Shown: positions 4,378 to 41,360 of the stretch, piece by piece | How the letters are laid out: each line of letters begins with the position of its first letter | Position numbering within the stretch: the first letter of the stretch is position 1 | From: a bacterium | GTDB lineage: Bacteria; Krumholzibacteriota; Krumholzibacteriia; LZORAL124-64-63 | DNA: 64,000 bases | Direction of reading: 5' to 3' | Assembly: GCA_016703265.1 (NCBI GenBank) | Contig: JADJCK010000015.1 | Coordinates: 8,586 to 72,585, forward strand | Notes under the pieces: model-generated | Seen by the model: the letters and a program-made list of their open reading frames with translations, nothing else | Database searches by the model: none | Told to the model about the DNA's origin: nothing | Made by a program: the position numbers and the translations under genes

Positions 4378-4469
4378 GATCCGCTGATCGCATCTCATCT
4401 TCAGTCAACCCGCTTCTAGGCGTTGGCCCAGGGCCATCTTCTTTGGTTATCCTGGCCTTCGGCAGAATT

Positions 4470-7381: not shown

Positions 7382-7434
7382 ACTTGCGCCGGCGCAACTG
7401 CTCGCGTGGTTGTGATTGTTGCGCCGGCGCAAGT
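7382..7434. repeat. double-palindrome repeat, copy A (REP/BIME-like)
   Basis: ACTTGCGCCGGCGCAACT - 18-nt spacer ending GTGATT - GTTGCGCCGGCGCAAGT; 14-bp perfect palindrome cores at 7384-7397 and 7419-7432. Confidence 0.9.
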
Positions 7435-7506
7435 TTCAGGGGGTCGAGACACGGGCCGCTCCAGCACCCGCTTCATGCCGCGTTCCCGCGACCTGAAGCA
7501 AGCCGC

Positions 7507-7977
7507 CTAGGTCCCGGCCTGGCGCGCCTCAGGCACGGCCAACGTCGCCAGATCGAACACGTTCGCGAAATTGACAATGGGCGGCACGAACGCGGGAAGC
7601 TGGGCTCTCAGCAGCGAAGACACGAGCGCTTCGCGAATGAACGGATACATCAGGCTGGGGGCCACACGACCGCCGACCTGCTTCAGTGCACTCGCCAGGG
7701 CGTCTGGGTCCACGGGCGGGTTGTCGATCTCGATGACGGATCGATAGGCCACCGCAAGCGTTACCCCCGGTAGATTCGTGATCTGCACCGACAGCTCTAC
7801 GCCTAGGACATTCGTGGCGAGGCGATTCAACCCGAGATTGAGCTTGAACTCGACCTGATGGTCGGACGCAAACTCCCGCACCGCGTCCTCTTTGCGAACT
7901 TCGAGCATGGTGAGTTCCGGGCCGGCCACGAGACGGATGCCCGGTTCGCTCCTGCTCTCTGTGGCTTCAGCTGACAT
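7507..7977 (-). CDS. SecB-like chaperone (third gene of a toxin-antitoxin-chaperone module)
   Basis: About 155 aa; SecB-like pattern (LEVRKED..EF., VEFKLNLG.., LMYPFIREALVSSLLRAQLP..PPIVNF); overlaps the hicB stop by 11 nt. Confidence 0.65.
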   Translation of the reverse strand: MSAEATESRSEPGIRLVAGPELTMLEVRKEDAVREFASDHQVEFKLNLGLNRLATNVLGVELSVQITNLPGVTLAVAYRSVIEIDNPPVDPDALASALKQVGGRVAPSLMYPFIREALVSSLLRAQLPAFVPPIVNFANVFDLATLAVPEARQAGT

Positions 7978-8530
7978 TCAGGTTCTCCTCGCATGCGAAC
8001 GAAAGCACGTTGTTTGGATGTTGTGACATGTACTCGGTGGTCTGGACTGTCAGTGACGGTCCTGAATCGTCTGATCTCCGGGAAAACGCACTCAGCGGAA
8101 TCAGGGACTGCGATGACGTGAGCGGCAGGCCGCCACTGCGCCCAAACGAGGCCTCAAAGCTGTAGCGTGGTAGTGGCCGGCGCTCGCGCGGTGCCGGTGA
8201 TGCATTGCGGGCGACCGATTCCTCGAGTTGCAGGACCATCCACCTGTTGACGCTCGTCCCCAATTCTGCGGCGCAGATGGTGACGGATCGATGGAGCTCC
8301 GGAGACATTCGCAACAGCAGTTTCCCGGAGAAGGGCCGCTCGGGTTCCTCCTGGCGCGTTGCGCAGAACTCGAGGTAGTCCTCGACCGAATCGATGAACG
8401 CCTGCTGGATCTCATCCACGGACCTGCCTTGAAACGTGATCACGTCCCGCGTGTTGACCACACGTCCGTGGAGCAGGTTCGCGTCCGCGTCGAACTCGAC
8501 GGTCGCCATGTAACCCTTGTACTCCATCAT
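7967..8530 (-). CDS. hicB: HicB-family antitoxin with long C-terminal extension (candidate chaperone-addiction region)
   Basis: MMEYKGYMATVEFDADANLLHGRVVNTRDVITFQGRSVDEIQQAFIDSVEDYLEFC plus RHH-like LLLRMSPELHRSVTICAAELGTSVNRWMV, then a ~60-aa low-complexity tail; 4-nt overlap with hicA. Confidence 0.75.
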   Translation of the reverse strand: MMEYKGYMATVEFDADANLLHGRVVNTRDVITFQGRSVDEIQQAFIDSVEDYLEFCATRQEEPERPFSGKLLLRMSPELHRSVTICAAELGTSVNRWMVLQLEESVARNASPAPRERRPLPRYSFEASFGRSGGLPLTSSQSLIPLSAFSRRSDDSGPSLTVQTTEYMSQHPNNVLSFACEENLNVS

Positions 8531-8781
8531 GGCGCTACTCCCGCCTGGATGAGGAACTCCCTGACCGACTTCACGGCGCCCCTGTCGGTTTCCCTCTTTG
8601 GGTGGGGCCGGTGGAAGATGGCCTTGCGACCGTTCAGCGCCACCCTGACGCGCGACCCTCGGCCCTCCGTGATCTCGGCGCCAAGTCCATTCAGCAGCGA
8701 GACGATGTCGTCCCACACAATGTCCGCTCTCGTGGGCGATTCGAAGATGGCCGCCAAGGTCCCGCGCTGGTGACTGTTCAT
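8527..8781 (-). CDS. hicA: HicA-family toxin
   Basis: 84 aa; TLAAIFESPTRADIVWDDIVSLLNGLGAEITEGRGSRVRVALNGRKAIFHRPHP matches the HicA mRNA-interferase pattern. Confidence 0.75.
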   Translation of the reverse strand: MNSHQRGTLAAIFESPTRADIVWDDIVSLLNGLGAEITEGRGSRVRVALNGRKAIFHRPHPKRETDRGAVKSVREFLIQAGVAP

Positions 8782-8980
8782 AAGCCGCCCTGGATAGATC
8801 GACCGCGGGTCGCTTCGCCTTGATTGAATGATACTACAAAATGATACTGCACGCCAATCGATATTCGTCGCGAGCGTTACTGTTTGTGAAATAGACGGTT
8901 AGTCGCCATTGCCCATCCCCCCTTCGGGCACACCTGGCCAACCAGAGAAGCTGTTTCGTTTATTTCATATATTGCGAATA

Positions 8981-9475
8981 ATGCGAATCTCCTTTACCAT
9001 CCCGAAATACCCAAGGAGCCCCGCCTTGCCCTCCCCGCAACCCGATCCCATCCAGCCCACCGAAGCGGAGATCCGCCTCGCCGCCGACGCGGTTCGTGAG
9101 CTGGCACGCTTTCTGGAAGCTGACCTTCCCATCCAGGTGCCTGGCCTCGACCGCCCCGTGGTGCTTCCCACCGCGGCCGTGCGCCTGCTGGTCGAGCTGC
9201 TCGCCACCATGGCGGAAGGACATGCCGTGACCCTGATCCCCGTCCACGCCGAACTCACCACCCAGCAGGCCGCCGACCTTCTCGGCGTTTCCCGCCCGTT
9301 CCTGGTCAAGGAACTGGAGTCGGGCCGCCTGGCCCACCGCAAGGTCGGCACGCATCGCCGCGTTCTGTTCCGCGACCTCATGGCCTACAAGCGTGCGCAC
9401 GAGGCCACGCGCGTGGAGGCGTTGGGGGAGCTGGCGGGACAGGCGCAGGATCTGGATCTGGGATACGGGGAGTGA
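8981..9475 (+). CDS. excisionase/MerR-type HTH antitoxin (partner of PIN toxins)
   Basis: TTQQAADLLGVSRPFLVKELESGRLAHRKVGTHRRVLFRDLMAYKR; start uncertain (TTG 8909 or ATG 8981). Confidence 0.6.
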   Translation: MRISFTIPKYPRSPALPSPQPDPIQPTEAEIRLAADAVRELARFLEADLPIQVPGLDRPVVLPTAAVRLLVELLATMAEGHAVTLIPVHAELTTQQAADLLGVSRPFLVKELESGRLAHRKVGTHRRVLFRDLMAYKRAHEATRVEALGELAGQAQDLDLGYGE

Positions 9476-9752
9476 CGAACTTCACTGCGGATATCGATGC
9501 CTGCGTACTGTATGCAGGGCACTTGCGCCGGCGCAAGTGATGGCGCCCGGCGGAGAAACCAATCGCGCTATTTCGAACCGCCGCTCCTCGTGTCGCGCAG
9601 CGTGTCGTCATCGTTTCAGACCGCCCCAAGGGAGGATCGATCTCCATGAGCCGTCGTCTCCATTCCGGCCATTCATTGATGCCGGCTTTGACGCGCTCGA
9701 CGCGGGCCCAGAATGCGGCGGACTCCGGGGTGTCAGTCTTCTTTTCCAGCAT
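9378..9752 (-). CDS. hypothetical small protein (only the N-terminal ~50 aa look genuine)
   Basis: MLEKKTDTPESAAFWARVERVKAGINEWPEWRRRLMEI is protein-like. The 3' half of the ORF reads through repeat B and overlaps the antitoxin gene, so the true end is unclear. Confidence 0.25.
   Translation of the reverse strand: MLEKKTDTPESAAFWARVERVKAGINEWPEWRRRLMEIDPPLGRSETMTTRCATRGAAVRNSAIGFSAGRHHLRRRKCPAYSTQASISAVKFVTPRIPDPDPAPVPPAPPTPPRAWPRAHACRP
9473..9540 (+). pseudogene. 5' stub of a PIN-domain (VapC-like) toxin gene, cut off by repeat copy B
   Basis: GTGA overlap with the antitoxin stop. It reads VTNFTADIDACVLYAG (typical PIN N-terminus with the first acidic residue), runs into ACTTGCGCCGGCGCAAGT and stops. 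Confidence 0.4.
9521..9538. repeat. single palindrome unit, copy B
   Basis: ACTTGCGCCGGCGCAAGT, perfect 18-bp palindrome. Confidence 0.85.
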
Positions 9753-9981
9753 CGGTCCTGCCTCCCGTAGCGATCTCTAACTGTACGGCAGCTGCCTCTT
9801 CGAGTTCAAGGTGTGAATACCCAGGGACCCATCACCACGCCGCATTGATCCCCCATGGACACCGCGCCCGAGAGTCACCGCTGCCCGTGCAACTAAATTC
9901 GCTGTTATATAATGAGTTAACGAAGTCTGGCCCGCCGGCACCGATCCCGCTCCAGAGAATTTCCAAGATTCCATTGATTGC

Positions 9982-10000
9982 TGGTACCGTATTTGGTACC
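9982..10000. promoter_or_regulatory. candidate operator: TGGTACC-N5-TGGTACC upstream of hicA-2
   Basis: Two copies of the self-complementary GGTACC 12 nt apart, 16 nt upstream of the ATG at 10016. Confidence 0.25.
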
Positions 10001-10015
10001 ATATCCTTTGGAGCG

Positions 10016-10264
10016 ATGATGTCGCGCGCAGACAAGCTCATTGAACGAGCCTGCAGGCACCCTGGCTCACTCACGTTTGGAGAGCTGGAGCGGCTGGCAG
10101 GACTGTTCGGCTTCCATCAGGTCCGGCAGCGCGGCAGCCATCGCATCTTCAAGCGGCCGGGCCATCCGTACTTCAACTTCCAGGAGTCCGGCGGCATGGC
10201 GAAGATCGCGCAAGTAAGACAACTGCTCGACTACGCCCACTCCCAGGGCTGGCTCGACGACTGA
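10016..10264 (+). CDS. hicA: HicA-family toxin (second HicAB module)
   Basis: 82 aa; LTFGELERLAGLFGFHQVRQRGSHRIFKRPGHP (YcfA/HicA-like). Confidence 0.7.
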   Translation: MMSRADKLIERACRHPGSLTFGELERLAGLFGFHQVRQRGSHRIFKRPGHPYFNFQESGGMAKIAQVRQLLDYAHSQGWLDD

Positions 10265-10277
10265 TAAGGAGACCCCC

Positions 10278-10673
10278 ATGCCCGGCTACAGCCAGTACAT
10301 CGCCTGGAGCGCCGAGGACAACCAATACGTGGCCACTTGCCCGGAGCTGGCTCACCTCATGGCCCTTGGCGACACGGAAGAAGAAGCCGTGAGCGGACTG
10401 AAGGTCGCCATCGGACTGGTCCTCGAGGACATGGCCGCATCCGGCGCCACGCCGCCCATACCTTCAGGCCACATGGCGCACAGCGGGCAGTTCCGCGTGC
10501 GCCTGCCGCGCACGTTGCACGCGCGGCTCGCCATGCAGGCCGAGCGCGAAGGTGTCTCACTGAACACCCTGGTCTGCACGTTGTTGTCCGAGGGCTCCGC
10601 GCTCTGGCATGCGGCGGACCATGTGACGGAGCGGTTCAGGGTGGCTTGTGGGGAGGGGCTCGACCGGGAGTGA
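10278..10673 (+). CDS. hicB: HicB-family antitoxin
   Basis: YSQYIAWSAEDNQYVATCPELAHLMALGDTEEEAVSGLKVAIGLVLEDM plus C-terminal RHH FRVRLPRTLHARLAMQAEREGVSLNTLVCTLL. Confidence 0.75.
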   Translation: MPGYSQYIAWSAEDNQYVATCPELAHLMALGDTEEEAVSGLKVAIGLVLEDMAASGATPPIPSGHMAHSGQFRVRLPRTLHARLAMQAEREGVSLNTLVCTLLSEGSALWHAADHVTERFRVACGEGLDRE

Positions 10674-10705
10674 GGGGCGTTGGCGGGCAGGCGGGGGTGG
10701 CCCGT

Positions 10706-10756
10706 CAGCGCCGGCGCAACTTCTCCCGCGGCCGTGATTCTTGCGCCGGCGCAAGT
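10706..10756. repeat. double-palindrome repeat, copy C (left unit degenerate)
   Basis: CAGCGCCGGCGCAACT - TCTCCCGCGGCCGTGATT - CTTGCGCCGGCGCAAGT. Confidence 0.85.
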
Positions 10757-10825
10757 GACCAAACGACAAACTATATACGAATCAGAGTCCGTGCGGCGCA
10801 TGTTTTGGTCCAATGATGTTGTCTG

Positions 10826-11260
10826 GTGCGCCCATATTGGGTATCATATAGTACTAAACGACCCTCCCTGGTCGCCGAACCAATCACCGGCAGGTTCCTC
10901 GTGCCCCAGGCCCAGGCGTCCGACCAGGAACGACGATTACTGCGCGCCCTCGCGGCCGACCCGAGCCGGGCGACTGCGACCCAAAGGGCTCTCTACGACC
11001 TGATGGCTCATGGCCTGACGGTGGCCGACGCCTGCGACGCCCTGTGGCATTGGATCGTCGAGGATCGACCGGTGAAGCGGACCCTGATGCACGGCCAGGA
11101 TGACGGCCAACCCGCTTTCGAGATCTGGCCCGAGCTGGTGGGGCGGAAGTTCTATTGCAAGTTCCTCGTCAGGGGGAACCCGCTCGTGCAGCAGTTGCTG
11201 CTGGTGGTGTCGGCCCACCCCGACGATCCCCACAGCCCATCGAGAGGCAGCCCGTCATGA
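10826..11260 (+). CDS. MqsR-like toxin (putative)
   Basis: Sits directly upstream of, and ATGA-overlapping, a zinc-ribbon+HTH antitoxin. C-terminal GRKFYCKFLV....LLLVVSAHPD resembles the MqsR (Y.K..V....V.SFKE) core. True start may be GTG 10898, because TATCAT/TATAGT -10-like boxes lie at about 10841-10856. Confidence 0.45.
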   Translation: MRPYWVSYSTKRPSLVAEPITGRFLVPQAQASDQERRLLRALAADPSRATATQRALYDLMAHGLTVADACDALWHWIVEDRPVKRTLMHGQDDGQPAFEIWPELVGRKFYCKFLVRGNPLVQQLLLVVSAHPDDPHSPSRGSPS

Positions 11261-11832
11261 CCGAGCCCCAATGCCCCCTGTGCGGCGCGCCAGCCCTCAT
11301 CCACCACGAGGGCCAGTACAAGATGTACCCGCCGCCCAACATCCCTGGCGGGCCGTTCACCGTGGCCAACGCCAAGTGGGAGGCGTGCGCCGCGTGCAAC
11401 GAGGAGATCCTCCCCGCCGCGTTGCTCGCCGAGCTCGAAGCGCAGCGCATCGAACGGCTGGGTTACCTGCGACCTGATGAGATTCGCGCCGTGCGCGAGC
11501 GCGCGGGGCTGACGCAGACCGAGATGGCGATTTTCGTGGGCGTCGGCGAGAAGACGTATTGCCGGTGGGAGGCGGGCCGTTCGTTGCAGAACCTGTCGAG
11601 CGACAACCTCATCCGCCTGGCCGACCGCGTGCCCGAAGCGTTCGCCCAGCTGTCGGTACAGCGCGACCCGCAGCGTCAGGCCGTGATCGATGCCTATCTG
11701 GCCGACCTCGGTAACCAGGAAGGGTGCAGCGAACTGGCGCTGGCGGCGCACGGGGCCGAACTCGACGTGGCGCTGGCCGACGAGTTGCGCCTGCGCCTGC
11801 GCATCCTGGCATCGAAGGGGAAGGACCAGTGA
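11257..11832 (+). CDS. MqsA-like antitoxin (N-terminal zinc ribbon + XRE HTH) with a ~70-aa C-terminal extension
   Basis: CPLCG...CAACNEE zinc ribbon; HTH IRAVRERAGLTQTEMAIFVGVGEKTYCRWEAGRSLQ; extra tail after the HTH. Confidence 0.7.
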   Translation: MTEPQCPLCGAPALIHHEGQYKMYPPPNIPGGPFTVANAKWEACAACNEEILPAALLAELEAQRIERLGYLRPDEIRAVRERAGLTQTEMAIFVGVGEKTYCRWEAGRSLQNLSSDNLIRLADRVPEAFAQLSVQRDPQRQAVIDAYLADLGNQEGCSELALAAHGAELDVALADELRLRLRILASKGKDQ

Positions 11833-12677
11833 CCGCGAGAATGTTGCGCGGTGCACCCGGGATCGCGCCGCACGAATTGATGGTGCGCCTGCTGCACGCC
11901 ACTGCGCAGGACCAGCCGGGCGCCATCGACCCGGCCCGCCTGCTATCGTTCCTGGGCCTGGATTTCCTGCCGGTGGATTTCGCGACGGCGCTTCGCGACG
12001 TCCTTCCCGACGACGCCCGCACCGCGCGCGCGCTGCTGTCGTCTCCCGACCACCTGGTCGCCGTCGATGCCGCGCTCGACCCGCAGTGGGTGCGCTTCAG
12101 CACCCTGCACGAGATTGCCCATTACGTGCTGCAGGATCATCGCCACGCGCTCTACCTCTGCGATGCCGAAGGACTCAGCCACCGGGCGCGCCTCGACTTC
12201 GAAGTGCAGGCCAACCTTTTCGCCGCCGACCTGCTGTTCAAGGGCCATTATTTCACGGTGGAGGCGCAGGCCCTGCCGGTATCGGCCGCGACGGTCAAGG
12301 CGCTGGCGCTGAAGTACCAGGCCTCATTCGAAGCGACAGCACGCCGCCTGGTGGAGAAGCACCATGCCCCGGTCATGCTGGTCGTCTGCGAGCGACAGGC
12401 AGATCGCTCGGTCATCGACGCGTCCCAGTCCGCAGTCTGGCGGGTGAAGTACTGCTCGGCGTCGACGTCGTTCAGGACGCGATGGTTCGCCCGCGTTGAA
12501 GGCGAGGCGCCCGCCGAAATCGCCGCGGCGCTGTCGACCGGCGGGCGCGACCTCGCCGACTCGATCGTGGTGGAGATGCCGCTGGCGGGGGATGCGGGCG
12601 GAGCGTTCAGGGTCGAGTGGTACTTCGATCAGGGCCATGTCATGGGGCTCGCGATGCCGACGAAGGGTGGGGCTTAG
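11829..12677 (+). CDS. ImmA/IrrE-family (COG2856, DUF955) zinc metalloprotease
   Basis: HEIAHYVL (HExxH) followed by EVQANLFAADLL; GTGA overlap with the antitoxin stop. Confidence 0.7.
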   Translation: MTARMLRGAPGIAPHELMVRLLHATAQDQPGAIDPARLLSFLGLDFLPVDFATALRDVLPDDARTARALLSSPDHLVAVDAALDPQWVRFSTLHEIAHYVLQDHRHALYLCDAEGLSHRARLDFEVQANLFAADLLFKGHYFTVEAQALPVSAATVKALALKYQASFEATARRLVEKHHAPVMLVVCERQADRSVIDASQSAVWRVKYCSASTSFRTRWFARVEGEAPAEIAAALSTGGRDLADSIVVEMPLAGDAGGAFRVEWYFDQGHVMGLAMPTKGGA

Positions 12678-12693
12678 GGCAGTGGCGGGTGCC

Positions 12694-12746
12694 ACTTGCG
12701 CTGGCGCAACTTCTCCCGCCCCCGTGATTGTTGCGCCGGCGCAACT
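12694..12746. repeat. double-palindrome repeat, copy D
   Basis: ACTTGCGCTGGCGCAACT - TCTCCCGCCCCCGTGATT - GTTGCGCCGGCGCAACT. Confidence 0.85.
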
Positions 12747-12845
12747 CACAGAACCGCGTGAAATCCATCGCAAGCCGCATTAACGATAAGCCGGCATCGC
12801 ATCCCAAGCCCGCCCATCGCGAACGGATGAGTCGCGAGGGCTGAT

Positions 12846-13514
12846 TCACGATTCCGCGCGCGACTGACCACCGGTCAAGTCGCGCGCGTGCCCGGCGTGT
12901 CGCGGGCTGCCGACGGCCGCCAGGGGAATCTCGACGATCGCCACGCGTGCGGGGTTGAGATGGACATCTTCCCCGCCATTGTCATCGGTGAACGAGACCA
13001 TGCCGCAGCCTGGCGTCCAGACCTCAAGTTCCCCGGCGAAGGAGGCCAGCGGACGGCAATCGGGATCGCCGTCTTCGATTTCCCCCGGGTCGTCCGCATC
13101 GACGACAAATTCCACCACGGCGCGGTCAGAGGTGAAATGGACCCGCAACGCGCCGCGGCCTTCGGGACGTTCCTCGAGATCATCCTGGTTCTCGAAACGG
13201 GCCCCGTCGACAGCGCTGTCCCACAGCAGATGGATGGACTGCACGGCCGCCAGGCGGACGCAGACGATCTGGTAGCGCGAATCGAAACAGAAGAAGTTCT
13301 CGAAGCCGCGGTCACCCAGGGCTCTTTCGAGGCGCCGCTTGCACGTTGCTGCGATCGGGTAGTCGCACGGCTCTCGGCCTGGCAGGCGGATTCTGGCGGT
13401 CCAGTACACAGCGCCGTCGATGGCGGCGTGGTCCAACGGGTAGGCCGGTTGGGACTGGGGCGGGCTCTTCCCGGTCTGCGGCGTTCGTCTGTGGTTGTGC
13501 ATCGGGAGCTCCAT
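12846..13514 (-). CDS. hypothetical protein (no recognisable domain)
   Basis: Coding-like ORF; acidic C-terminal half; start at MELPMHN (13514) or MHN (13502); bracketed by repeat copies D and E. Confidence 0.4.
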   Translation of the reverse strand: MELPMHNHRRTPQTGKSPPQSQPAYPLDHAAIDGAVYWTARIRLPGREPCDYPIAATCKRRLERALGDRGFENFFCFDSRYQIVCVRLAAVQSIHLLWDSAVDGARFENQDDLEERPEGRGALRVHFTSDRAVVEFVVDADDPGEIEDGDPDCRPLASFAGELEVWTPGCGMVSFTDDNGGEDVHLNPARVAIVEIPLAAVGSPRHAGHARDLTGGQSRAES

Positions 13515-13722
13515 TTGCTGCGCGCATGGCGGGAGACTGCCCGCTTGAGCGCAGGGAACCCGTGGGCACGCCGGGTGCCAGCCCGCTCGCAACTGCCGGA
13601 AACCGCGCTGTGGACGCCGCGGGAGTGGAGCTTCGGTCTGGCGGCCGCCATGGGCCGGGGGTGGATTGTGTCGCCAGCGCGGGACGCGTTGGGCCGAAGT
13701 GGATAGACCGATTGACGGCGGC

Positions 13723-13775
13723 AGTTGCGCCGGCGCAAGTCTTCAAGCCACCGTGATTCTTGCGCCGGCGCAAGT
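13723..13775. repeat. double-palindrome repeat, copy E
   Basis: AGTTGCGCCGGCGCAAGT - CTTCAAGCCACCGTGATT - CTTGCGCCGGCGCAAGT. Confidence 0.9.
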
Positions 13776-13833
13776 CATAGGACTGCACAAAATCCCCAAT
13801 GGCATCAATCAGGTGCTGATTCACGGAGTGCGA

Positions 13834-14523
13834 CTATTCCCGCCCCCGCACCAACATCCCCCCGCTGATCCCCAGCACCACCGCCGCATGCAGGAACGCC
13901 ACCATCGGTGTCCACATCAATCGCGATTCGCCGTGCTGCGAGATCACCATCGCCAATGGCAGGGCACAGAGGGCCAGCAGGAGCCAGCCGGTGACGCGCG
14001 GCGCACGTCGCGCAAGAAAAGCGAGCCCCGCGAGACCTGCGGCCGCCAGTAGAACGAATCCCGCAGCCGCTGTCGTCCTCTCGGCAAAGGATCCCGTCAG
14101 GACGATCGAAATCGACGCGGCAGTGAGCACCGATGCACCCAGCAGCAGCCGGAACGTGCCGGCGCGAGCGCCCCAGTATTGGAGCAGATAGCTGACGGCG
14201 AAGACCTCGACCAACAGCTTGCGTGGCGTCTCGCCACTGAAGGCCGCACTCACGTTCGGCCCGAGGCGCCCGGCGAAGAGCAGGACAGCCACCGCCAACA
14301 ACGCATGAAACCCGGCGCGACGCGTCACGCCCATCGTCCATTCATCCGCATCCTTCAACCAGCCGATCTCGCGCAGCACCGACGGCAGGAACACCGCCAG
14401 GGCGAACGCGACCTCGAGGCGCGGATAGAGCCAGGTGCCGGCCAGGGCCACCACGCCGATGCCGAACGCGATCGCGTCGATCGACGGCAAGCGCCTGGGG
14501 GTCTCACGCGTCATCATCGTCAT
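13834..14523 (-). CDS. multi-pass membrane protein co-transcribed with a small XRE regulator
   Basis: At least 5 hydrophobic helices; overlaps the upstream HTH gene by about 20 nt. Confidence 0.5.
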   Translation of the reverse strand: MTMMTRETPRRLPSIDAIAFGIGVVALAGTWLYPRLEVAFALAVFLPSVLREIGWLKDADEWTMGVTRRAGFHALLAVAVLLFAGRLGPNVSAAFSGETPRKLLVEVFAVSYLLQYWGARAGTFRLLLGASVLTAASISIVLTGSFAERTTAAAGFVLLAAAGLAGLAFLARRAPRVTGWLLLALCALPLAMVISQHGESRLMWTPMVAFLHAAVVLGISGGMLVRGRE

Positions 14524-14728
14524 CCCCTCCCTCGACGAGCTCGAACAGGTCGGTGACGGGCATGCCCAGGGCGTCGGCCAGCGTGAACGCGAGCAGGGCC
14601 GAGGGCACGTACTTGCCCTTCTCGATGGCCAGGATGGTCTGGCGGCGCACACCGACGGCGGCGGCCAGGTCTTCCTGGGTCAAATCGAGGCGGGCGCGGT
14701 GCTGTTTCAGGTGGTTGGTGAGTTTCAT
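14504..14728 (-). CDS. XRE-family HTH transcriptional regulator (74 aa, acidic tail)
   Basis: LKQHRARLDLTQEDLAAAVGVRRQTILAIEKGKYVPSALLAFTLADALGMPVTDLF. Confidence 0.8.
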   Translation of the reverse strand: MKLTNHLKQHRARLDLTQEDLAAAVGVRRQTILAIEKGKYVPSALLAFTLADALGMPVTDLFELVEGGDDDDDA

Positions 14729-14741
14729 GGGGTTGAATGTA

Positions 14742-14751
14742 CGCTATAGCG
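14742..14751. promoter_or_regulatory. candidate operator palindrome CGCTATAGCG upstream of the XRE gene
   Basis: Perfect 10-bp palindrome 14 nt upstream of the XRE start codon, in an AT-richer stretch. Confidence 0.3.
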
Positions 14752-14891
14752 CACTTTTTGTCAATGGTGAATGACATTTTGGCCGCGCGCGGCCTCGGCG
14801 CTCTTAAGCCCAAGTTGTGGCAAGGTTTACGCTGCCATTCGCCGTCAGGTCGATTACCGTGTCGCTTTCATAAGACAGAGGGAGAGCGAGC

Positions 14892-15276
14892 ATGAAGAAG
14901 CAGACCCCCGAATCGGCCGCCCCGGCTTCGCAGTTGATCGACGAGCGCATCGAGGAACTGGGTGACTGGCGCGGCGATCTGCTCGCCCGCCTGCGCGCCG
15001 TGATCCGCGCGGCCGACCCCGCCATCGTCTAGGAGTGGAAGTGGCGCGTGCCGGTGTGGTCGCGCGACGGCATCATCTGCACGGGTGAGGCCTACAAGAG
15101 CACCGTGAAGCTGACCTTCGCCAAGGGTGCGGCGCTGAAGGACCCGAAGGGCCTCTTCAATTCCAGCCTCGAAGGCAACACGCGGCGCGCGATCGACTAT
15201 CGTGAAGGCGACAAGGTGAACGAGGCCGCGCTGAAGACGCTCGTGCGCGGCGGCGGCCCTGAACGCGAAGGCTTGA
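14892..15276 (+). pseudogene. DUF1801 (YdhG-like) gene with in-frame TAG and a probable 2-nt indel
   Basis: MKKQTPESAAPASQLIDERIEELGDWRGDLLARLRAVIRAADPAIV-TAG(15030)-EWKWRVPVWSRDGIICTGEAYKSTVKLTFAKGAALKDP..NTRRAIDYREGDKVNEAALKTLVR. The usual ending AAAALNAKA-stop is in the +1 frame (TGA 15274-15276). Confidence 0.55.
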
Positions 15277-16082
15277 TGAACGTGCGTGGCGCCGCAACCA
15301 TCCTCACATTGGCCGCACTGCTGGCGCTCCCGCCCGCCACCGCGCACGCCGCCTCGCCGTTCCCCTACAACCTGCGCACCGGCCGCGAGGCCGCGCTCGC
15401 CGCCACCGGCACCAGCCTCCTGCTCACCAGCCTGATCCTCGCGCACGACAACACGCCGCTCACGCCGGCGGAGCTGGCCGCGCTCGATGTCGCAGCGTTG
15501 CCGTCGATCGACCGCGCCGCCACCCGCCGCTGGTCGCCCGGCGCGGCGAAGGCCAGCGATCGCCTCGTGACGACACTCACCATCGCGCCGCTCGCCGTTG
15601 CTGCGGTCGGTCCCGGTCGCGAGCGCGGCGGCCGCGTGGCGCTCATGTATGCCGAGACGATGCTCCTCTCGGGCGGCGCCACGGCGCTGCTCAAGCACGC
15701 TGTCGCGCGGCCGCGGCCGTTCACGTACAACGACGACGCGCGCATCGACCCGGCGCTGCGCCTGTCGGGCATGGCGCGGCGCTCGTTTCCTTCGGGCCAC
15801 ACGGCGCAGTCGTTCGCGGCGATGGTCTTCCTTGCCACGGTGCACGGGAAGCTGCAGCCGCGCGGTGAGGGCTGGGTCTGGGCGGGATGCCTGGGCGCGG
15901 CGGCCACCGTGGGCTGGCTGCGTTACGAGGCGGGGTACCACTTCCCGACCGACATCCTGGCGGGCGCGGCGATCGGCGCCACGGCGGGATGGCTGGTGCC
16001 GCATCTGCATGAGCTCGCTGATGACGGCACAACCGCCGCGCCGGTGGAAGGCGCGCGCATCGGCGTCGGCTTCGGGTTCTGA
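15276..16082 (+). CDS. PAP2-superfamily phosphatase (membrane)
   Basis: Signal peptide MNVRGAATILTLAALLALPPATAHA; KHAVARPRP, PSGH, YEAGYHFPTD (acid-phosphatase motifs). Confidence 0.7.
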   Translation: MNVRGAATILTLAALLALPPATAHAASPFPYNLRTGREAALAATGTSLLLTSLILAHDNTPLTPAELAALDVAALPSIDRAATRRWSPGAAKASDRLVTTLTIAPLAVAAVGPGRERGGRVALMYAETMLLSGGATALLKHAVARPRPFTYNDDARIDPALRLSGMARRSFPSGHTAQSFAAMVFLATVHGKLQPRGEGWVWAGCLGAAATVGWLRYEAGYHFPTDILAGAAIGATAGWLVPHLHELADDGTTAAPVEGARIGVGFGF

Positions 16083-16130
16083 TTCACCTCGCGCAGGGAG
16101 TTTCACCCCCACGAGAATTCGAACCGGAGG

Positions 16131-16649
16131 ATGACCATGTTCCTGATGCTCCTGTTGATGCTGCTCGTCGCCCAGGCTCCGGTTGCCGCCGCGGCGCCTG
16201 CGACACAACTTGACGCCGCCACCTCCCAATCGACCGCAACCCTGGAGACGACCATGACCGCCACCGGCGCCTTCGACGTGAAGATGATTCCCCAACCCGC
16301 CGACGGCGAAGCCGCCGGCCCGTTCGGCCGCCTGCTGCTCGACAAACAGTACCACGGCGCGCTCACGGCCGTCAGCCGCGGCCAGATGATGGCCTTCCAG
16401 TCGGCGACCGAGGGATCGGCGGGGTACGTGGCGCTGGAGCAGGTCACCGGCACCCTCGACGGGCGCCGCGGCAGCTTCGTGCTGCAGCACGAGGGGCTCA
16501 TGACGCGCGGTACGCCCACCCGCCTGCAAGTGACCGTGGTGCCGGACTCGGGGACCGACGAACTGGCAGGACTGGCCGGCGAACTGGACATCATCTTCGC
16601 CGAGGATGGCCATCGCTACGAGTTGAGGTACACGCTGGAGCGGCCGTAG
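16131..16649 (+). CDS. DUF3224 domain protein (secreted)
   Basis: Signal peptide; GAFDVKMIPQP......LLLDKQYHGALTAVSRGQMM...GYVALEQVTGTLDGRRGSFVLQH pattern. Confidence 0.55.
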   Translation: MTMFLMLLLMLLVAQAPVAAAAPATQLDAATSQSTATLETTMTATGAFDVKMIPQPADGEAAGPFGRLLLDKQYHGALTAVSRGQMMAFQSATEGSAGYVALEQVTGTLDGRRGSFVLQHEGLMTRGTPTRLQVTVVPDSGTDELAGLAGELDIIFAEDGHRYELRYTLERP

Positions 16650-16736
16650 CGCCTGGCGGGGCCCCGTGGCGGCGTTGGTGGCGTGCGCGCATTCACCGCC
16701 CTTGCCCCGGGGCCCGCTTCTGGCTAGCCTGCCGGG

Positions 16737-18590
16737 ATGCAACACACAGCGCTCGGCATCCTCAACACCACCTACGGTTACCCCGCCTTCCGCGGCCACC
16801 AGGCCGCGGTCATCGACCACCTGACAGCGGGCGGCGACGCCCTGCTGCTCATGCCCACCGGCGGCGGCAAGTCGGTGTGCTACCAGATCCCGTCGCTGCT
16901 GCGCGAGGGCACCGGCATCATCGTCTCGCCCCTGATCGCGCTGATGCAGGACCAGGTCGGCGCCGTGACGCAACTGGGCCTGAAGGCCGCATTCCTCAAC
17001 TCGACATTGTCGATGAGGGAAGCCGCGGACGTCGAGCGCCGGCTGCTGGGCGGCGACATCGAACTGCTCTACATCGCCCCCGAGCGGCTGCTGCAGCCGC
17101 GCACCCTCGAACTGCTCGACAAGGCCGCCATCGCGCTGTTCGCGATCGACGAGGCGCACTGCGTCTCCCAGTGGGGACACGACTTCCGTCCCGAGTACCT
17201 GCAGTTGTCGGTCCTGGCCGAGCGCTACCCGGGCGTGCCGCGCCTGGCCTGCACCGCCACGGCCGACGAGCGCACGCGCGCCGAGATTCTCACCAACCTG
17301 CGGCTGGAAGGCGGCCGCGTGTATGTGGGCGGTTTCGATCGCCCCAACATCCGCTATCGCGTGGTGCCGAAGGACGAGCCGCGCAAGCAACTGCTCAAGT
17401 TCCTGCGCGACGAGCACGCCGGCGACGCCGGCATCGTATACTGCCTGGCCCGCAAGAAGACGGAGGAGACGGCCGCGTTCCTGGTTCAGAACGGCATCCC
17501 CGCCGTGCCGTACCACGCCGGGCTCGACGCCGCGGTGCGCCGTCGCCATCAGGAGCGCTTCCTCAACGAGGACGGCCTGGTCGTCTGCGCGACCATCGCG
17601 TTCGGCATGGGCATCGACAAGCCCGACGTGCGCTTCGTCGCGCACCTCGACCTGCCCAAGAGCGTGGAGGGCTACTACCAGGAGACCGGTCGCGCCGGCC
17701 GCGACGGACTGCCGGCCAACGCCTGGCTCTGCTACGGCCTGCAGGACGTGGTGATGCTGCGCAAGCTGGTCGACGACGGCGAAGGTGACGAGATGCATCG
17801 CCGCCGCGCCTCGCAACAACTCGACGCGATGCTCGGCTACTGCGAAGTCACAGCCTGCCGCCGCCAGCGCCTGCTGGCCCACTTCGGCGAAGTGATGCCC
17901 GAGCCGTGCGGCAACTGCGACACCTGCCTGTGGCCGCCCGAGACGTTCGACGCCACCGTCGTCGCACAGAAGGCTCTGTCGTGCGTCGCCCGCACCGGCC
18001 AGCGCTTCGGCGCGCAACACATCATCGAGGTGCTGCGCGGCGGCGCCGCCGAACGCGTGCTGCGCCTGGGCCACGACAAGCTGTCGACCTACGGCATCGG
18101 CAACGAACTGGACGCCTTCGGCTGGCGCAGCGTCATCCGCCAGCTGGTGGCCGGCGGCTACCTGGCGCTCGACCCCGAGGGCTACGGCGGCCTGCGCCTG
18201 ACGTCGGCGGCGGGCCCGGTGCTGCGGGGCGAGCAGCCGCTGCACCTGCGGCGCGATGTGTTGCAACGCGCGACTGCCGGCGCAGGTCGCGGCGCCGCCC
18301 GCAAAGCCCGCCGCGCCGAACTGGCCCTGGCGGCCGATTTCGACGACGCGGTGGAGCCGGATGCCGCCACCACCCTGCTTTTCGAGCGCCTGCGCACGCT
18401 CCGCAAGCGCCTGGCGTCGGAAGCGGGCGTGCCGCCGTATGTCATCTTCCATGACAAGACGCTGGCCGAAATGGCGCGCCGGCGGCCGACTTCGGAGGCG
18501 GCGTTGCTCGGCATCAACGGGGTGGGGCAGGCCAAGCTGGAGAGGTATGGGGAGGCGTTCTTGGCGGAGATGAGGGTGGAGGAGGGGTGA
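16737..18590 (+). CDS. recQ: ATP-dependent DNA helicase RecQ
   Basis: [40 protein letters not shown], zinc-binding CRR..L..FGE...CGNCDTC, C-terminal HRDC ([16 protein letters not shown]). Confidence 0.95.
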
Positions 18591-18645
18591 GGGCTTAACG
18601 CGCGCCCGGGACTTGGCCCCGTGGAATCTCTTTTGATATGGAGTC

Positions 18646-18697
18646 ACTTGCGCCGGCGCAAGTTTCACGATTTGGCGATTGTTGCGCCGGCGCAAGT
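18646..18697. repeat. double-palindrome repeat, copy F
   Basis: ACTTGCGCCGGCGCAAGT - TTCACGATTTGGCGATT - GTTGCGCCGGCGCAAGT. Confidence 0.9.
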
Positions 18698-18782
18698 GGG
18701 CTGGTCGCGCTTCAACGCAACATCCCCACTTCGCTCCGTGCCGGCCAAGCCCGACTTGAAGTGCACATACAAAGTATTTACA

Positions 18783-19052
18783 ATGTTATCAGACAGGATT
18801 GCGAACCGGGCCAGCATGGAGCCAACTGATATGCGCAAGACCTACGATTTCTCGAAGGGCAGCAAGAACCCCTACGCCGCCCGACTCAAGAAGACCCAGG
18901 TCACCATCCGGCTGGATGAGGTCACCGTCACCTGGTTCAAGGCACTTGCCGAGGAAATCGGTATCCCGTACCAGACCCTTATCAACCTCTACCTGCGCGA
19001 CTGTGCGGCGAACGAGCGTCGGCTGAATCTCGAATGGAAGCCGAAAAGGTAA
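18783..19052 (+). CDS. BrnA-like antitoxin (orphan; no BrnT toxin gene upstream)
   Basis: MRKTYDFSKG..NPYAARLKK.QVTIRLDEVTVTWFKALAEEIGIPYQTLINLYLRDCA; start 18783, 18816 or 18831. Confidence 0.65.
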   Translation: MLSDRIANRASMEPTDMRKTYDFSKGSKNPYAARLKKTQVTIRLDEVTVTWFKALAEEIGIPYQTLINLYLRDCAANERRLNLEWKPKR

Positions 19053-19121
19053 TTCGGCGGATGCAGCGCGTATCCTCATGCTAATTATGGAGCTAGCGTC
19101 CACCTGGCTGGGCGCGGCAAA

Positions 19122-19142
19122 AGTGCCACAGCTTGTGGCACT
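19122..19142 (+). terminator. 9-bp perfect hairpin AGTGCCACA-GCT-TGTGGCACT (terminator or operator)
   Basis: Located 70 nt after the brnA-like stop; followed by ATTT only, so intrinsic-terminator status is weak. Confidence 0.3.
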
Positions 19143-19332
19143 ATTTGGATAGGTGCCGCTTCGCGCCTGCCCGATGTGGCCATTCCCCCGCTTCAACGAT
19201 TTGTTAGGCACACGGCATCCGTACACCCCGCGTGATACGGCATGTCCCGTCCCCCAGGCCACCAGCCGACCGAGCCCCGCCGTCCGGCCACGCCGCAGCG
19301 ACGGGCCGCTCACGACCATACGGAGAAGCGAG

Positions 19333-19821
19333 ATGGTGAACTCCGCAAAGAACAGGATCTGCCTCTGGTACGACGGCGACGCCGAGGAAGCCGCACGGTT
19401 CTACGCCAGGACCTTCCCCGACTCGTCCGTGGGCGCGGTGATGCGCGCACCGGGCGACTATCCGTCGGGCAAGCAGGGCGACGTGCTGACCGTCGAGTTC
19501 ACGGTGATGGGCATTCCCTGCCTCGGGCTCAACGGCGGACCCGCGTTCCAGCACAGCGAAGCGTTCTCGTTTCAGGTCGCCACCGTCGACCAGGCCGAGA
19601 CCGATCGCTACTGGAACGCGATCATCGGCAACGACGGCCAGGAGAGCGCCTGCGGCTGGTGCAAGGACAAGTGGGGGGTGTCGTGGCAGATCACGCCGAT
19701 CGCCCTGACGCAAGGCGTCACCGATCCCGATGCCGCCGTGGCCGGGCGCGTGTTCGAGGCGATGATGGGGATGACGAAGATCGATGTCGCCGCCATCGAG
19801 GCGGCGCGACGCGGGTCGTGA
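19333..19821 (+). CDS. VOC/glyoxalase-superfamily protein (PhnB / 3-demethylubiquinone-9 methyltransferase-like domain)
   Basis: ICLWYDGDAEEAARFYARTFPDS.., GDVLTVEFTVMGIPCLGLNGGP.FQHSEAFSFQV...DQAETDRYWNAI, CGWCKDKWGVSWQI. Confidence 0.7.
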   Translation: MVNSAKNRICLWYDGDAEEAARFYARTFPDSSVGAVMRAPGDYPSGKQGDVLTVEFTVMGIPCLGLNGGPAFQHSEAFSFQVATVDQAETDRYWNAIIGNDGQESACGWCKDKWGVSWQITPIALTQGVTDPDAAVAGRVFEAMMGMTKIDVAAIEAARRGS

Positions 19822-19845
19822 AGCCCGGGACTTGTGAAGCCCGCG

Positions 19846-19926
19846 ACTTGCGCCGGCGCAACTCTCACGACGAAGTGATCGTTGCGCCGCCGCCTGCCTC
19901 GTCTCGCGACTTGCGCCGGCGCAAGT
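19846..19926. repeat. triple-unit version of the palindrome repeat, copy G
   Basis: ACTTGCGCCGGCGCAACT - CTCACGACGAAGTGATC - GTTGCGCCGCCGC (degenerate) - 17 nt - ACTTGCGCCGGCGCAAGT. Confidence 0.9.
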
Positions 19927-19945
19927 GGGCGGCCCGTCGCTCGCC

Positions 19946-20800
19946 CTATCGCCGCTTCAGCGCCCCGAACCGCGCCCACACCCCGCAATGGTCCGATCCC
20001 CACACGCCGGCCGGCGACGGCGCGCCCAGCACCACGCGCGCCGCGGTCGGCACCAGCTGCTCACCGTTGCAGAACAGGTAGTCGATGCGCCGCGGCGTCG
20101 TGCCCGTGGCCGGGCCGAACGTCGCGGCGGCGGGCAGCACCAGGCCCGGGTGCACGGTCGCCAGCACGTCGGTGAAGCGCTCGAACATGGGCGCCAGTTC
20201 GAGCCGGTCGGGTTCGGCGTTGAAGTCGCCGCCGATGAGAAGCGCAGCGTCAGGGGCCGTCAGCACGCGTCGCATCGACGAACGCCATCAATCCGGCAAT
20301 CTGCTCGGCGCGGATCTCCGCACCCTCTCCCGTGTGGTGCAGGTGCGTGACATAGGTCTCAAGTGACCGCCCGTCCGGCAGCGCGAGCCGCGCGCGTGCG
20401 CCGCCACGCGGTAGTCGTCGAGCGGTGGCAGCTTCACCTCGTGCTGCGCCACGATCGGCAGCCGCGTGAGGATCGCATTGCCGTAGCGCTTGGCCCCGCC
20501 CACCGGGTCCACCGACGTGAACACGAACACGCAACCCAGGCTGTCCGCCAGTTGCTGCGCCTGGTTGGGCAGCCCTTCCTTCTCGAGCACTTCCTGCAGG
20601 AAGATGACGTCGGGCGCCAACGCGCGCAGCGTGTCGACGATGACGGTGCTCCGCGCCGGCCAGTTCTGCTGGTCGTGCCAGAGGTTGAGCGTGACGGCGG
20701 TGAAACCGTTTGCAGGGGCGGGGACTTGCGCCGGCGCAAGTGCGGCCGCCGTCGCGGCGACAAGCAGGATCGCCACTGCTGCGATCGATGATGTGCGCAT
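19946..20800 (-). pseudogene. endonuclease/exonuclease/phosphatase (EEP) family gene split over three frames
   Basis: Signal peptide plus VTLNLWHD..., DVIFLQEV (ORF 20288..20830); LALPDGRSLETYVTHLHH (ORF 20250..20870); LLIGGDFNAEPD ... RIDYLF ... SDHCGVWA (ORF 19946..20275). Confidence 0.6.
20724..20741. repeat. single palindrome unit, copy H, inside the EEP signal-peptide codons
   Basis: ACTTGCGCCGGCGCAAGT read on the minus strand as ..ALAPAQV.. Confidence 0.85.
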
Positions 20801-20826
20801 GAGCCAGCTTCCTTCGTTGGTCGCGA

Positions 20827-21120
20827 TCACGCCTCTTCCACCGGCACCGCGTTGTCAGCGGCGGCCGCATACCGCGACCGCCGCTGGCACCAGAGAATCC
20901 AGCCGAGGCCGGCCACGGTGCTGACGACGCTCATCGCCGGCGGCATCTTCAGGCCGAACAGGCTGACGACGACCGGCAGGATCAGCAGGAAGAAGCCGCG
21001 GTTGGCCGACCGCGGGATCACGGTGAACCGGTGCGCGATGATCTCCACGAGGAACGTGATCACCGCGGTCGCCAGGACCGGCATCGCCAGGACGACTTCA
21101 CCTTTCAGGAAATCGGTCAT
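20827..21120 (-). CDS. small membrane protein (hypothetical)
   Basis: 97 aa from MTDFLKGE; three hydrophobic helices. Confidence 0.4.
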   Translation of the reverse strand: MTDFLKGEVVLAMPVLATAVITFLVEIIAHRFTVIPRSANRGFFLLILPVVVSLFGLKMPPAMSVVSTVAGLGWILWCQRRSRYAAAADNAVPVEEA

Positions 21121-21160
21121 GCATCCATTCCCTTCAAATGTACTGCGGGCAGCCGTCGTG

Positions 21161-21206
21161 AATTGCGCCGGCGCAACTCTCACGATCCCGTGACTTGCGC
21201 CGCGCC
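21161..21206. repeat. double-palindrome repeat, copy I (right unit degenerate)
   Basis: AATTGCGCCGGCGCAACT - CTCACGATCCCGTG - ACTTGCGCCGCGCC. Confidence 0.8.
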
Positions 21207-23517: not shown

Positions 23518-23722
23518 CTTTTGCGCATGCGTTCGGGAATCGTTCCTGGCGCCAGCCCAGGCAGTGCCGCTGCTGATGGTACCCTGCAACTGCCGTACGA
23601 TGCAAGATAGAGAGCCCCGCCCAACCCCCACGGTTGCTTCAACGCGCCATCGGCCCTAGTCTTGGGCGGTCCCGAGCCGGGAGAATCGATCCCCGAGCGC
23701 ACCCCGCATCCCCGGAGATGGC

Positions 23723-31996: not shown

Positions 31997-32036
31997 GCGC
32001 GCGGCGCATGCGGTTGAATGGTGGATGCGGCCGGCT

Positions 32037-41343: not shown

Positions 41344-41360
41344 ACAATAGGAGGGTCGAC

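Follow-up and report, generated by a model that had tools for sequence, protein, structure and literature searches.

The stretch analysed here (64,000 nucleotides, positions 8,586 to 72,585 of contig JADJCK010000015.1 from a bacterium of the phylum Krumholzibacteriota; hereafter the window) carries a short palindromic repeat whose copies lie between small groups of genes, where they may mark the junctions of exchangeable modules. The core of the repeat, the 14-mer TTGCGCCGGCGCAA, occurs in 16 exact copies in the window and in none of 100 dinucleotide-preserving shuffles; near-copies with one or two mismatches lie at 10706 and 12696. The complete unit is an 18-bp perfect palindrome, ACTTGCGCCGGCGCAAGT. 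The 14-mer copies group into 11 sites: six doublets, three singles, one triplet and one unit accompanied by a decayed unit. Nine of these sites fall within 7.38–21.21 kb, a segment that we refer to as the island. An earlier note on this DNA had listed 11 copies, nine of them in 7.3–21.2 kb, and both a count and a reading of the copies in context bear it out.

Gene order in the window was derived from family searches and from our own codon-bias gene caller; the segments between repeats are termed cargo A to H, and loci from other genomes and contigs are numbered with the prefix L. An MFS gene (minus strand) and a LysR gene lead up to the first doublet (7382–7434; units 7382–7399 and 7417–7434, spacer CTGCTCGCGTGGTTGTGATTG), which begins 42 bp past the LysR stop codon and has convergent genes on either side. 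Cargo A (7435–9520) comprises a SecB-like chaperone (7507–7929), a 187-residue open reading frame (ORF; 7967–8530) and HicA (8527–8781), all on the minus strand, and an HTH_17 gene on the plus strand (9026–9475); a single perfect 18-bp unit (9521–9538) follows 46 bp past the latter. ORF 9378–9752, previously taken for a PIN stub, gave no family match, and that assignment is not confirmed. Cargo B (9539–10703) consists of small ORFs and HicB on the plus strand (10278–10673). Thirty-one bp past HicB comes a doublet (10704–10756) whose first unit is decayed (14-mer with two mismatches); the succession of HicB and doublet is also found in L018, L024 and L036. Cargo C, on the plus strand (10757–12693), has its own promoter-like site at 10819–10847 and encodes a 119-residue protein, an MqsA-like antitoxin (11257–11832) and an ImmA/IrrE M78 peptidase (11877–12677). 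The next doublet (12694–12746; first 14-mer with one mismatch) lies 17 bp past the peptidase gene and is kept in L042, L044 and L065. Cargo D, on the minus strand (12747–13722), is an orphan 222-residue gene (12846–13514) with doublets on both sides; it had no match in family searches and occurs, together with a doublet, in the same three loci.

The doublet at 13723–13775 separates this orphan from a membrane protein and an XRE regulator (13834–14728, minus strand), the first genes of cargo E (13776–18645), which continues with DUF1801-PAP2 (15048–16082), DUF3224 (16131–16649) and RecQ (16737–18590); its DUF3224–RecQ part belongs to a backbone conserved among relatives. A doublet (18646–18697) stands 56 bp past the RecQ stop codon, and its ortholog is a doublet in L034 and a decayed single unit in L035 and L039. 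Cargo F, on the plus strand (18698–19845), contains a brnT remnant, BrnA (18831–19052) and a VOC-type gene of the 3-dmu-9_3-mt family (19333–19821) that adjoins a doublet in an unrelated context in L026. Between this gene and a gene for an endonuclease/exonuclease/phosphatase (EEP) protein lies the composite triplet (19846–19926), already recognised as such, whose middle unit is decayed (unit 19846–19863, spacer, decayed unit at about 19880–19897, unit 19909–19926). Cargo G, on the minus strand (19927–20723), is the EEP gene, present as two ORFs (19946–20266 and 20288–20776); the gene, split in the window (19946–20776), is intact in L035 (296 residues) and L034 (440 residues). A single unit (20724–20741) lies within its 5′ coding region, where it reads LAPAQ in the signal peptide. 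Cargo H, on the minus strand (20742–21160), holds a 97-residue ORF (20827–21120), and is followed by a unit, a spacer and a decayed second unit (21161–21206). To the right of this last island site lie isochorismatase, outer-membrane protein, BacA and the ATP-synthase operon. Two sites stand apart, both as described before: a doublet (34487–34538) located 160 bp past tpx (33824–34327) and about 220 bp before a 5′-truncated terminase gpA remnant, which is the prophage remnant of the earlier description, and a single unit (45980–45997) that is in frame with an Omp85-family gene (45872–47341) and reads TCAGAT in the part coding for the signal peptide.

The repeat is not peculiar to this window. 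The exact doublet pattern was found at 33 loci in nine species-representative metagenome-assembled genomes (MAGs), and 43 metagenome contigs carry it as well. A search of 2.9 million viral contigs gave a single match, and a viral origin was rejected on this count. The carrier MAGs, of 64–75% GC throughout, are labelled ‘bacterium’, Krumholzibacteriia or Eisenbacteria (Fibrobacteraceae and Victivallales labels are probably wrong), and the RecQ and IntI homologues bear Krumholzibacteria or Krumholzibacteriia names; no record matching the RecQ of the window exactly was found. Exact doublets number 1 to 11 per MAG, with three in a single 4.72-Mb MAG contig versus four in the 64-kb window, and further single units commonly lie 1–3 kb from each doublet: the family thus has few copies, and these are clustered. 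No unit occurs in 12–22 kb of the relatives L037 (RecQ 84% identical), L038 and L041. The 14-mer does not occur in the literature that we searched, and Rfam 15 gave no match at gathering score across the window, in line with the earlier impression that the repeat was not one already described. Judged from its sequence and distribution, the family is a previously undescribed, lineage-wide palindromic repeat; that it is common to many genomes of one uncultured lineage goes beyond what had been noted.

Its placement is far from uniform. Units occupy 8 of the 15 island intergenic regions of at least 40 bp and none of the 14 core ones (Fisher p = 0.002), which upholds the reported concentration at the borders of accessory modules; a similar density in core DNA, which would have reduced the repeat to an ordinary genome-wide one, is not seen, the repeat being clustered in variable islands. 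None lies in the divergent promoter regions of the island, whose genes are on both strands. Across loci, the contexts of non-redundant clusters are 59 tandem, 35 convergent, 14 divergent and 15 coding, and the median distance from a unit to a flanking gene end is 22.5 bp for 3′ ends (interquartile range 13–47.5) and 134 bp for 5′ ends, figures that rest on our own codon-bias gene calls. Copies in coding DNA are in frame and in tolerant segments, and mostly read LAPAQ or CAGA(T/S): they lie in the signal peptides of the EEP protein, the Omp85-family protein and an apparent lipoprotein (L034 16353–16370, recognised by eye from its signal peptide), in the N-terminal linker of a ParB-like protein (L073 1320–1502) and in an insertion of the MnmE GTPase (L021 2400–2560).

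Stable GC-rich hairpins at a median of 22.5 bp past stop codons, often between convergent genes, together with the promoter-like sites that the modules have just downstream of the repeats, might suggest selection for terminators, insulators or hairpins that stabilise mRNA where self-contained modules end. We consider this very unlikely. The repeats have no T-run, none of the seven terminator-like hits in 6–23 kb coincides with a repeat, and a classical terminator (hairpin plus T-run) is found after atpC (32010–32065; conserved at L068 4760–4805), indicating that the organism uses ordinary terminators; on these grounds the repeats themselves are not ordinary terminators. Moreover, an 18-mer identical across genera is not to be expected of terminators that arose independently, and copies are found within coding regions. 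Termination would perhaps be a side effect, which leaves the origin, the copying and the junctions of the repeat unexplained; a secondary effect as an mRNA 3′-end hairpin is possible.

The anatomy of the repeat was deduced from 49–72 non-redundant doublets and 76 singles, a set whose manner of selection makes the 14-mer invariant. Doublets of 52 bp, with a period of 34–35 bp, make up most copies, and tandem arrays reach four units. Each doublet folds as a single long hairpin (−34 to −42 kcal/mol; z of −4 to −8 versus shuffles). On its left the 14-mer is preceded by A and C (less often G), and on its right it is followed by G (less often C) and T. The spacer, with the consensus S-T-n-T-C-r-C-G-nnnn-C-G-y-G-A-n-A-S over 49 non-redundant doublets, is itself a dyad, as had been seen in the window copies. 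It shows essentially no compensatory variation in these 49 doublets. Instead, two of its positions appear to be kept apart: position 21/40 is paired in 31% of the copies and is C·C or G·G in 63%, and position 23/38 is paired in 20% versus about 38% expected from base frequencies, by our own arithmetic on the counts in the 49 doublets. Both are paired less often than base frequencies predict, which fits a folded hairpin with obligatory unpaired bases and not two independent double-strand half-sites. Singles are also well preserved: the perfect 18-mer is present in 68% of them (n = 76), half a spacer flanks one side in 47% (background, 3.6% per side), and decayed doublets account for 16%.

Doublets are copied as wholes, as indicated by the sharing of spacers between different loci and by their likeness within genomes. 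Indeed, one and the same spacer variant is found at non-orthologous loci in the window (10706) and in L035 (4249), and a near-identical one in the window (34489) and in L068 (4830), where the doublet sits past atpC; the doublet at 10704–10756 and the L035 doublet 4251–4313, which lies at another locus, share 90% identity with the spacer counted in. Spacer similarity is 0.596 within genomes and 0.556 between genomes, a difference reached in 19 of 500 permutations. No target-site duplication accompanied the copies: direct flanking repeats of at least 4 bp were found at none of the 72 doublets and none of the 76 singles, and did not exceed shuffled controls. A miniature inverted-repeat transposable element (MITE), one of the identities proposed earlier, is unlikely for this reason.

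With RecQ homologues and metagenome contigs closely related to the window as anchors, a shared backbone was recognised (MFS-LysR ... RecQ ... EEP-isochorismatase-BacA-atp), and between repeats the window, L034, L035/36, L037 and L039 carry differing cargo. In L035/36, RecQ has AbiE, an FlgD_ig protein and an AAA ATPase on its upstream side and YhcG, a 139-residue gene and TauE/thioredoxin on its downstream side; L039/40 has RhuM, AbiE, YhcG, Phd and Fic; L034 has an intact BrnTA pair, the VOC gene and six extra genes; L037, which has no repeats, carries Fic only. Units border the swapped modules in L035/36 and L039/40. Presence, absence and replacement of the bracketed segments among related genomes, which the earlier note had proposed to look for, are thus observed.

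Several of the junctions can be placed at or close to a unit. Past LysR, homology between the window and L035 is lost 6 bp before the window doublet; both have a doublet, and then different cargo. In L044 (92% identical) a single unit stands at the place of the window doublet 13723–13775, homology stops at the unit edge (window 13740) and an unrelated gene lies beyond. In L068, whose atp genes are 91% identical to those of the window, homology ends about 20 bp before a doublet and is back immediately past a single unit; the two enclose a gene for a 589-residue tetratricopeptide repeat (TPR) protein, unrelated to the 493-residue cadherin/FlgD_ig protein that the window has at that place. At the VOC–EEP junction, the window triplet stands in place of 4.5 kb of extra genes of L034. 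A 363-bp insert (the 97-residue ORF with unit and spacer, the site at 21161–21206 forming its right end) is present in the window and missing from L035 and L062. The in-gene unit of EEP (20724–20741) is perfect in L034 and L035; in L062 the copy here is decayed, with an intact unit lying some 10 nt from it. The EEP genes of the window, L034 and L035 are alike through this unit, and from the unit edge L034 fully diverges, with a longer and different N-terminus.

A link between the repeats and truncated toxins, also proposed earlier, fails for BrnT, the case that could be checked. The loss of brnT in the window is an internal deletion of about 230 bp (window 18698–18830 compared with L034 10694–11047) that does not begin at the repeat; a truncation of BrnT at the doublet, which we had considered, was withdrawn on this evidence. 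The brnT promoter (TTGAAG-17-TACAAT, 18756–18784) and BrnA are both intact, leaving BrnA as an orphan antitoxin.

Junctions of this kind could also be a by-product of homologous recombination between ordinary repetitive extragenic palindromic (REP) sequences or their hairpin-forming doublets (REPINs), mobilised by a REP-associated tyrosine transposase (RAYT, of the IS200/IS605 Y1 type) and accumulating in tolerant intergenic DNA. The REP-like architecture pointed out in the earlier note, likened there also to bacterial interspersed mosaic elements (BIMEs), is upheld as far as anatomy goes: the units are short palindromes, mainly extragenic and just past genes, inverted doublets form hairpins, tandem arrays comprise up to four units, coding DNA has received in-frame insertions (including an array within mnmE of L021), and target duplication is absent, as in IS200/IS605 transposition. 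REPINs are, however, characterized by hairpin doublets with common compensatory changes and by decayed singlets (PMC3116915). By contrast, the spacer here has fixed mismatches instead of compensatory changes, singles are as conserved as doublets, the unit is a perfect palindrome without a GTAG-type head, and the copies are few and clustered, not random in extragenic space. Neither a motif regular expression nor phmmer with E. coli RayT (six-frame translation, E ≤ 10) found a RAYT or another IS200/IS605-type gene, such as the earlier note had proposed to look for, in about 640 kb around units, a sample that spans every exact-doublet locus of the nine MAGs, in which a REPIN-flanked RAYT should appear, and that does not prove absence genome-wide. 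Taken together, these features make the REP/RAYT explanation unlikely.

All-against-all clustering of the proteins neighbouring units revealed no recurrent enzyme, just syntenic genes, toxin–antitoxin (TA) and abortive-infection (Abi) families and a shared sorting domain. The only recombinase adjoining units with an intact or full-length family match is an integron integrase (IntI), in four related genomes, an association that had not been noted before. It was found by reading the flanking proteins in L009 (TIGR02249, 292 bits; cutoff 265); in L030 the match (419 bits) covers positions 1–314 of 315; L087 (IntI 89% identical) and L088 (77%), reached through IntI homologues, share the layout. 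In all four, a perfect unit lies 35–48 bp upstream of the intI start while the surrounding DNA has diverged. In L087 and L088, the order is unit, BrnT-BrnA, unit, more genes, and ends with a unit just past a conserved RNase_T gene. In L030, three consecutive small ORFs have doublets between them, as in a cassette array; one resembles 4-oxalocrotonate tautomerase (by eye, a Tautomerase-family gene being present in the neighbouring P0122 contig). The window island and the regions linked to intI resemble each other just distantly, at the protein level, and a recent exchange of cargo between them was rejected accordingly. No published link between integrons and Krumholzibacteria was found in the literature searched. 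IntI, a neighbour of units, is the only candidate enzyme found, and that it acts on the repeat is in our opinion doubtful. Putative IS110-, IS91- and rve-type transposase fragments, recognised by eye, lie 18–164 bp from units in L022 (3535–4211), L056 (2718–2963) and L074 (1–195); units in such places may be insertion targets or deletion endpoints.

Considering the junctions, the anatomy and the distribution of the repeat together, we favour the view that the repeats are junction or recombination sites that delimit exchangeable gene modules; on sequence comparison, we give this reading as a whole a probability of about 50%. Among the interpretations that the earlier note had left side by side, a recombination or insertion hotspot is the one favoured. 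RAYT mobilisation, a MITE, an ordinary terminator and, for BrnT, the connection with truncated toxins are not supported. In the mechanism that we propose, lineage-specific structured palindromes would act as junctions for inserting, deleting and exchanging small modules in flexible parts of the chromosome. The replicating form would be the 52-bp doublet, folded into one hairpin with fixed unpaired positions. Crossovers would fall within the unit or at it, the folding of the single strand would matter, and the DNA may be acted on by a dedicated hairpin-recognising recombinase, which would meet the same duplex in the folded doublet as in the double-stranded unit.

A number of observations weigh against this reading. 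Synteny breaks at 16121 and 36516 of the window have no unit. The apparent break at 18698 consists of 57 unalignable nt (32 nt in L034) directly past the doublet; homology returns beyond this stretch with the brnTA promoter and BrnA. Since the doublet itself served to select the loci, all neighbourhood statistics are biased, and the placement figures depend on gene calls of our own. The window encodes no recombinase of any kind: there is no integrase, transposase or RAYT gene, nor an IntI remnant. As regards the integron integrases, L087 (10450–10666) and L088 (11820–12015) share about 200 bp of non-coding DNA, 1–2.8 kb downstream of intI. The shared stretch has its exact end at ...CCAATTAGGTG|TTAG, beyond which the sequences diverge and the contigs soon stop: on sequence, this looks like a classical attI–cassette junction, on the opposite side of intI from the units, as in an ‘inverted’ integron with TA genes between intI and attI. 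No units occur in the TA-rich variable stretch of L087 downstream of intI, L089 (IntI 72% identical) has no unit nearby, and L090 (IntI 68% identical) lacks units, attC sites of the classical kind lying downstream of its intI. (The L090 array, at 10988–14123, is a low-GC cassette array with attC sites of the GTCTAAC ... GTTAGAC type; a LexA-like S24 peptidase and a Y-family polymerase are encoded upstream.) Finally, exact junctions could arise through short-homology recombination between conserved 18–52-bp repeats, with no dedicated enzyme.

The proximity of IntI raises the question of whether the repeats are bona fide integron sites, the doublet being a non-canonical attC, the single unit a double-strand site of the attI or attG kind, and the 7.4–21.2 kb segment an attC cluster without integrase (CALIN). 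Such clusters, with attC variable terminal structures of 20–100 nt, are documented (PMC4889954), as are single attC sites lacking an integrase (SALIN) and attG insertions adjoining core genes, the minimal attG being 18 nt long (10.1101/2022.09.11.507474, PMC4889954). The units adjoining intI in L009, L030, L087 and L088 (about 45 bp upstream), the doublets separating small ORFs in L030, the TA-rich cargo in segments of 0.4–2 kb and a hairpin with fixed unpaired positions all agree with this possibility, and GTTGCGC and GCGCAAC fit GTTRRRY and RYYYAAC at six of seven positions. The details of the sites are less accommodating. AAC and GTT occur together in just 2 of the 49 doublets, the usual forms being AAC...CTT (19), AAG...CTT (13) and AAG...GTT (12); the inner region measures 16–20 nt as against the 20–100 nt of attC; and the element shows just two under-paired positions and, being symmetric, no evident extrahelical-base asymmetry. 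The cargo lies on both strands, has its own promoters and includes the conserved RecQ block. The window has no intI, and in the neighbourhood of intI there are fewer units than genes. The classical attI-like junction (G|TTAG) across intI in L087 and L088 tells against integron sites, too, and in particular weakens the identification of the unit with the attI of the adjoining integron. A classical integron cassette array in the window was rejected, given the lack of intI or its remnant, the genes on both strands and the missing attC hallmarks. Overall, integron sites in this broader, non-canonical sense are conceivable, and we would sooner expect that they are something else.

Another family of explanations takes the repeats as sites for a dimeric DNA-binding protein (of the ParB, KorB or Noc type) or a global regulator, with portable homology as an incidental property. 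A perfect 16–18-bp palindrome, invariant over divergent genomes, in low copy number and regionally clustered, is suggestive of such a site. So is the vicinity of some copies: the densest cluster, in L073, comprises three units within direct repeats of 97 bp upstream of a ParA gene and another five that read in frame, as LAPAQG repeats, in the 5′ part of the ParB/KorB-like gene next to it; in L021, three classical parS sites and parAB are 3.3 kb away from a unit array. The L073 ParB-like protein (406 residues) has 11 homologues, one of them betaproteobacterial; the others are of 314–362 residues, and the locus has 55–57% GC. With so few and mostly shorter homologues and this GC content, L073 is probably a foreign replicon with inserted units; several homologues align over just 67–78% of the query, and the N-terminal repeat region may consequently be specific to L073. 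As for L021, classical parS at its parAB implies that the chromosomal ParB of the lineage uses the classical site, which speaks against this reading. Further, units lie just past stop codons and not in promoters, the in-frame coding arrays resemble mobile-repeat insertions more than evolved operators, pairing below chance at two spacer positions favours a folded form, and the junctions at unit edges are left unexplained. We regard a protein-binding role as decidedly unlikely and keep it as a minor rival. In L021, the units lie near the jag-mnmE-mnmG-rsmG-parS-parAB cluster. In some copies (window 18664–18679; L074 219–266) the spacer half-sites GTTTCACG / CGTGAAAC are the halves of a classical parS set about six extra bases apart, a likeness that is probably coincidental. 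A LexA box and a classical parS were both rejected as identities of the repeat, spacing and placement being unfit; the window has no classical parS.

Elsewhere in the window, the terminase large-subunit (gpA) remnant (34334–36013) retains ATPase-domain profile positions 181–240 and the nuclease domain, and no other phage genes were recognised there. A block of 56–60% GC follows it (36721–43485), encoding a 1540-residue subtilase/FG-GAP/ASPIC protein and FlgD_ig and beta-helix proteins; a second block of such low GC (800–4400) encodes a trypsin-like protease. Both are probably foreign, and neither contains a repeat unit. Two tandem paralogous large secreted proteins are encoded on the minus strand at 55475–61406, the second of them split (56894–58285 and 55475–56857), perhaps as a pseudogene or through a frameshift. 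The cumulative GC skew has its minimum at about 22–24 kb (window 22000–25000), and gene orientation changes from minus to plus at about 23.6 kb, before the atp operon; a replication origin may be nearby.

If the repeats are true recombination sites, they would show how uncultured Krumholzibacteriota and their relatives reshuffle TA, abortive-infection and accessory modules at fixed hotspots. They would represent a type of site that is missed by the attC models of IntegronFinder, by REP/RAYT finders and by Rfam, and could account for some ‘In0’ integrases without recognisable attC; a 14–18-nt sequence would serve as a marker for flexible islands in MAGs, and would define a substrate for biochemistry. 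One step further, the family could constitute a third chromosomal gene-cassette system beside integrons and dif modules, the recombinase perhaps being an integron integrase with a second, symmetric class of substrates. We advance this tentatively and think it rather doubtful; were it correct, the symmetry of the site would let modules enter in both orientations, beside core genes and also in frame inside genes, and in-frame copies would permit swaps of N-terminal regions or signal peptides. Should the repeats instead prove to be REP-like and devoid of an enzyme, they would still be a clean case of conserved short repeats that act as portable homology for module exchange.

Neisseria offers a partial parallel: its dRS3 repeats, the mosaic elements that they form (NIME arrays) and its minimal mobile elements consist of short inverted-repeat units with variable intervening segments, are enriched at variable-region borders and rearrangement breakpoints, and are targets of the site-specific recombinase of mobile elements. 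The sequence, the unit structure and the phylum are different, and no cognate phage or Piv-type recombinase is seen here. The ParB-family sites (parS, Noc NBS and KorB OB) share with the unit a perfect palindrome of 16–18 bp, a GC-rich centre, a sequence that is invariant across genera and tens of regionally clustered copies; they do not share its location past stop codons, in frame within genes and at module junctions, or its doublets with fixed mismatches.

In anatomy, the repeat resembles the REP/BIME/REPIN elements of Proteobacteria (PMC3116915): palindromic units just past genes, hairpin doublets, arrays with conserved linkers, no target duplication, and a family conserved within a lineage. 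It differs from them in that the unit is perfect and headless, whereas theirs is an imperfect palindrome with a GTAG-like 5′ head, and in that it exists in tens of island-clustered copies, whereas theirs are spread in hundreds at random over extragenic space. In behaviour, it resembles two other systems. As with attC sites and CALINs, a lineage-specific site bounds small, exchangeable, TA-rich modules, with isolated copies next to core genes and an integrase nearby; yet the site is here 52 bp long, symmetric, without R/L-box asymmetry, and its AAC/GTT triplets are mostly AAG/CTT. The modules bounded by pdif sites on Acinetobacter plasmids, each a 28-bp site made of a XerC arm, a 6-bp spacer and a XerD arm (PMC13141974), are likewise rich in TA genes and differ between related replicons (PMC13141974, PMC6449649). 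They are shuffled, inverted and deleted without a module-encoded recombinase, and no module encodes such an enzyme here either; their site, however, is an asymmetric 11-6-11 plasmid sequence, whereas ours is a chromosomal 18-bp palindrome or 52-bp doublet, and there is no sign of Xer involvement. The repeat family described here would thus combine the anatomy of REP, BIME and REPIN elements with a behaviour that recalls attC and the TA- and defence-rich shuffled modules of Acinetobacter pdif.

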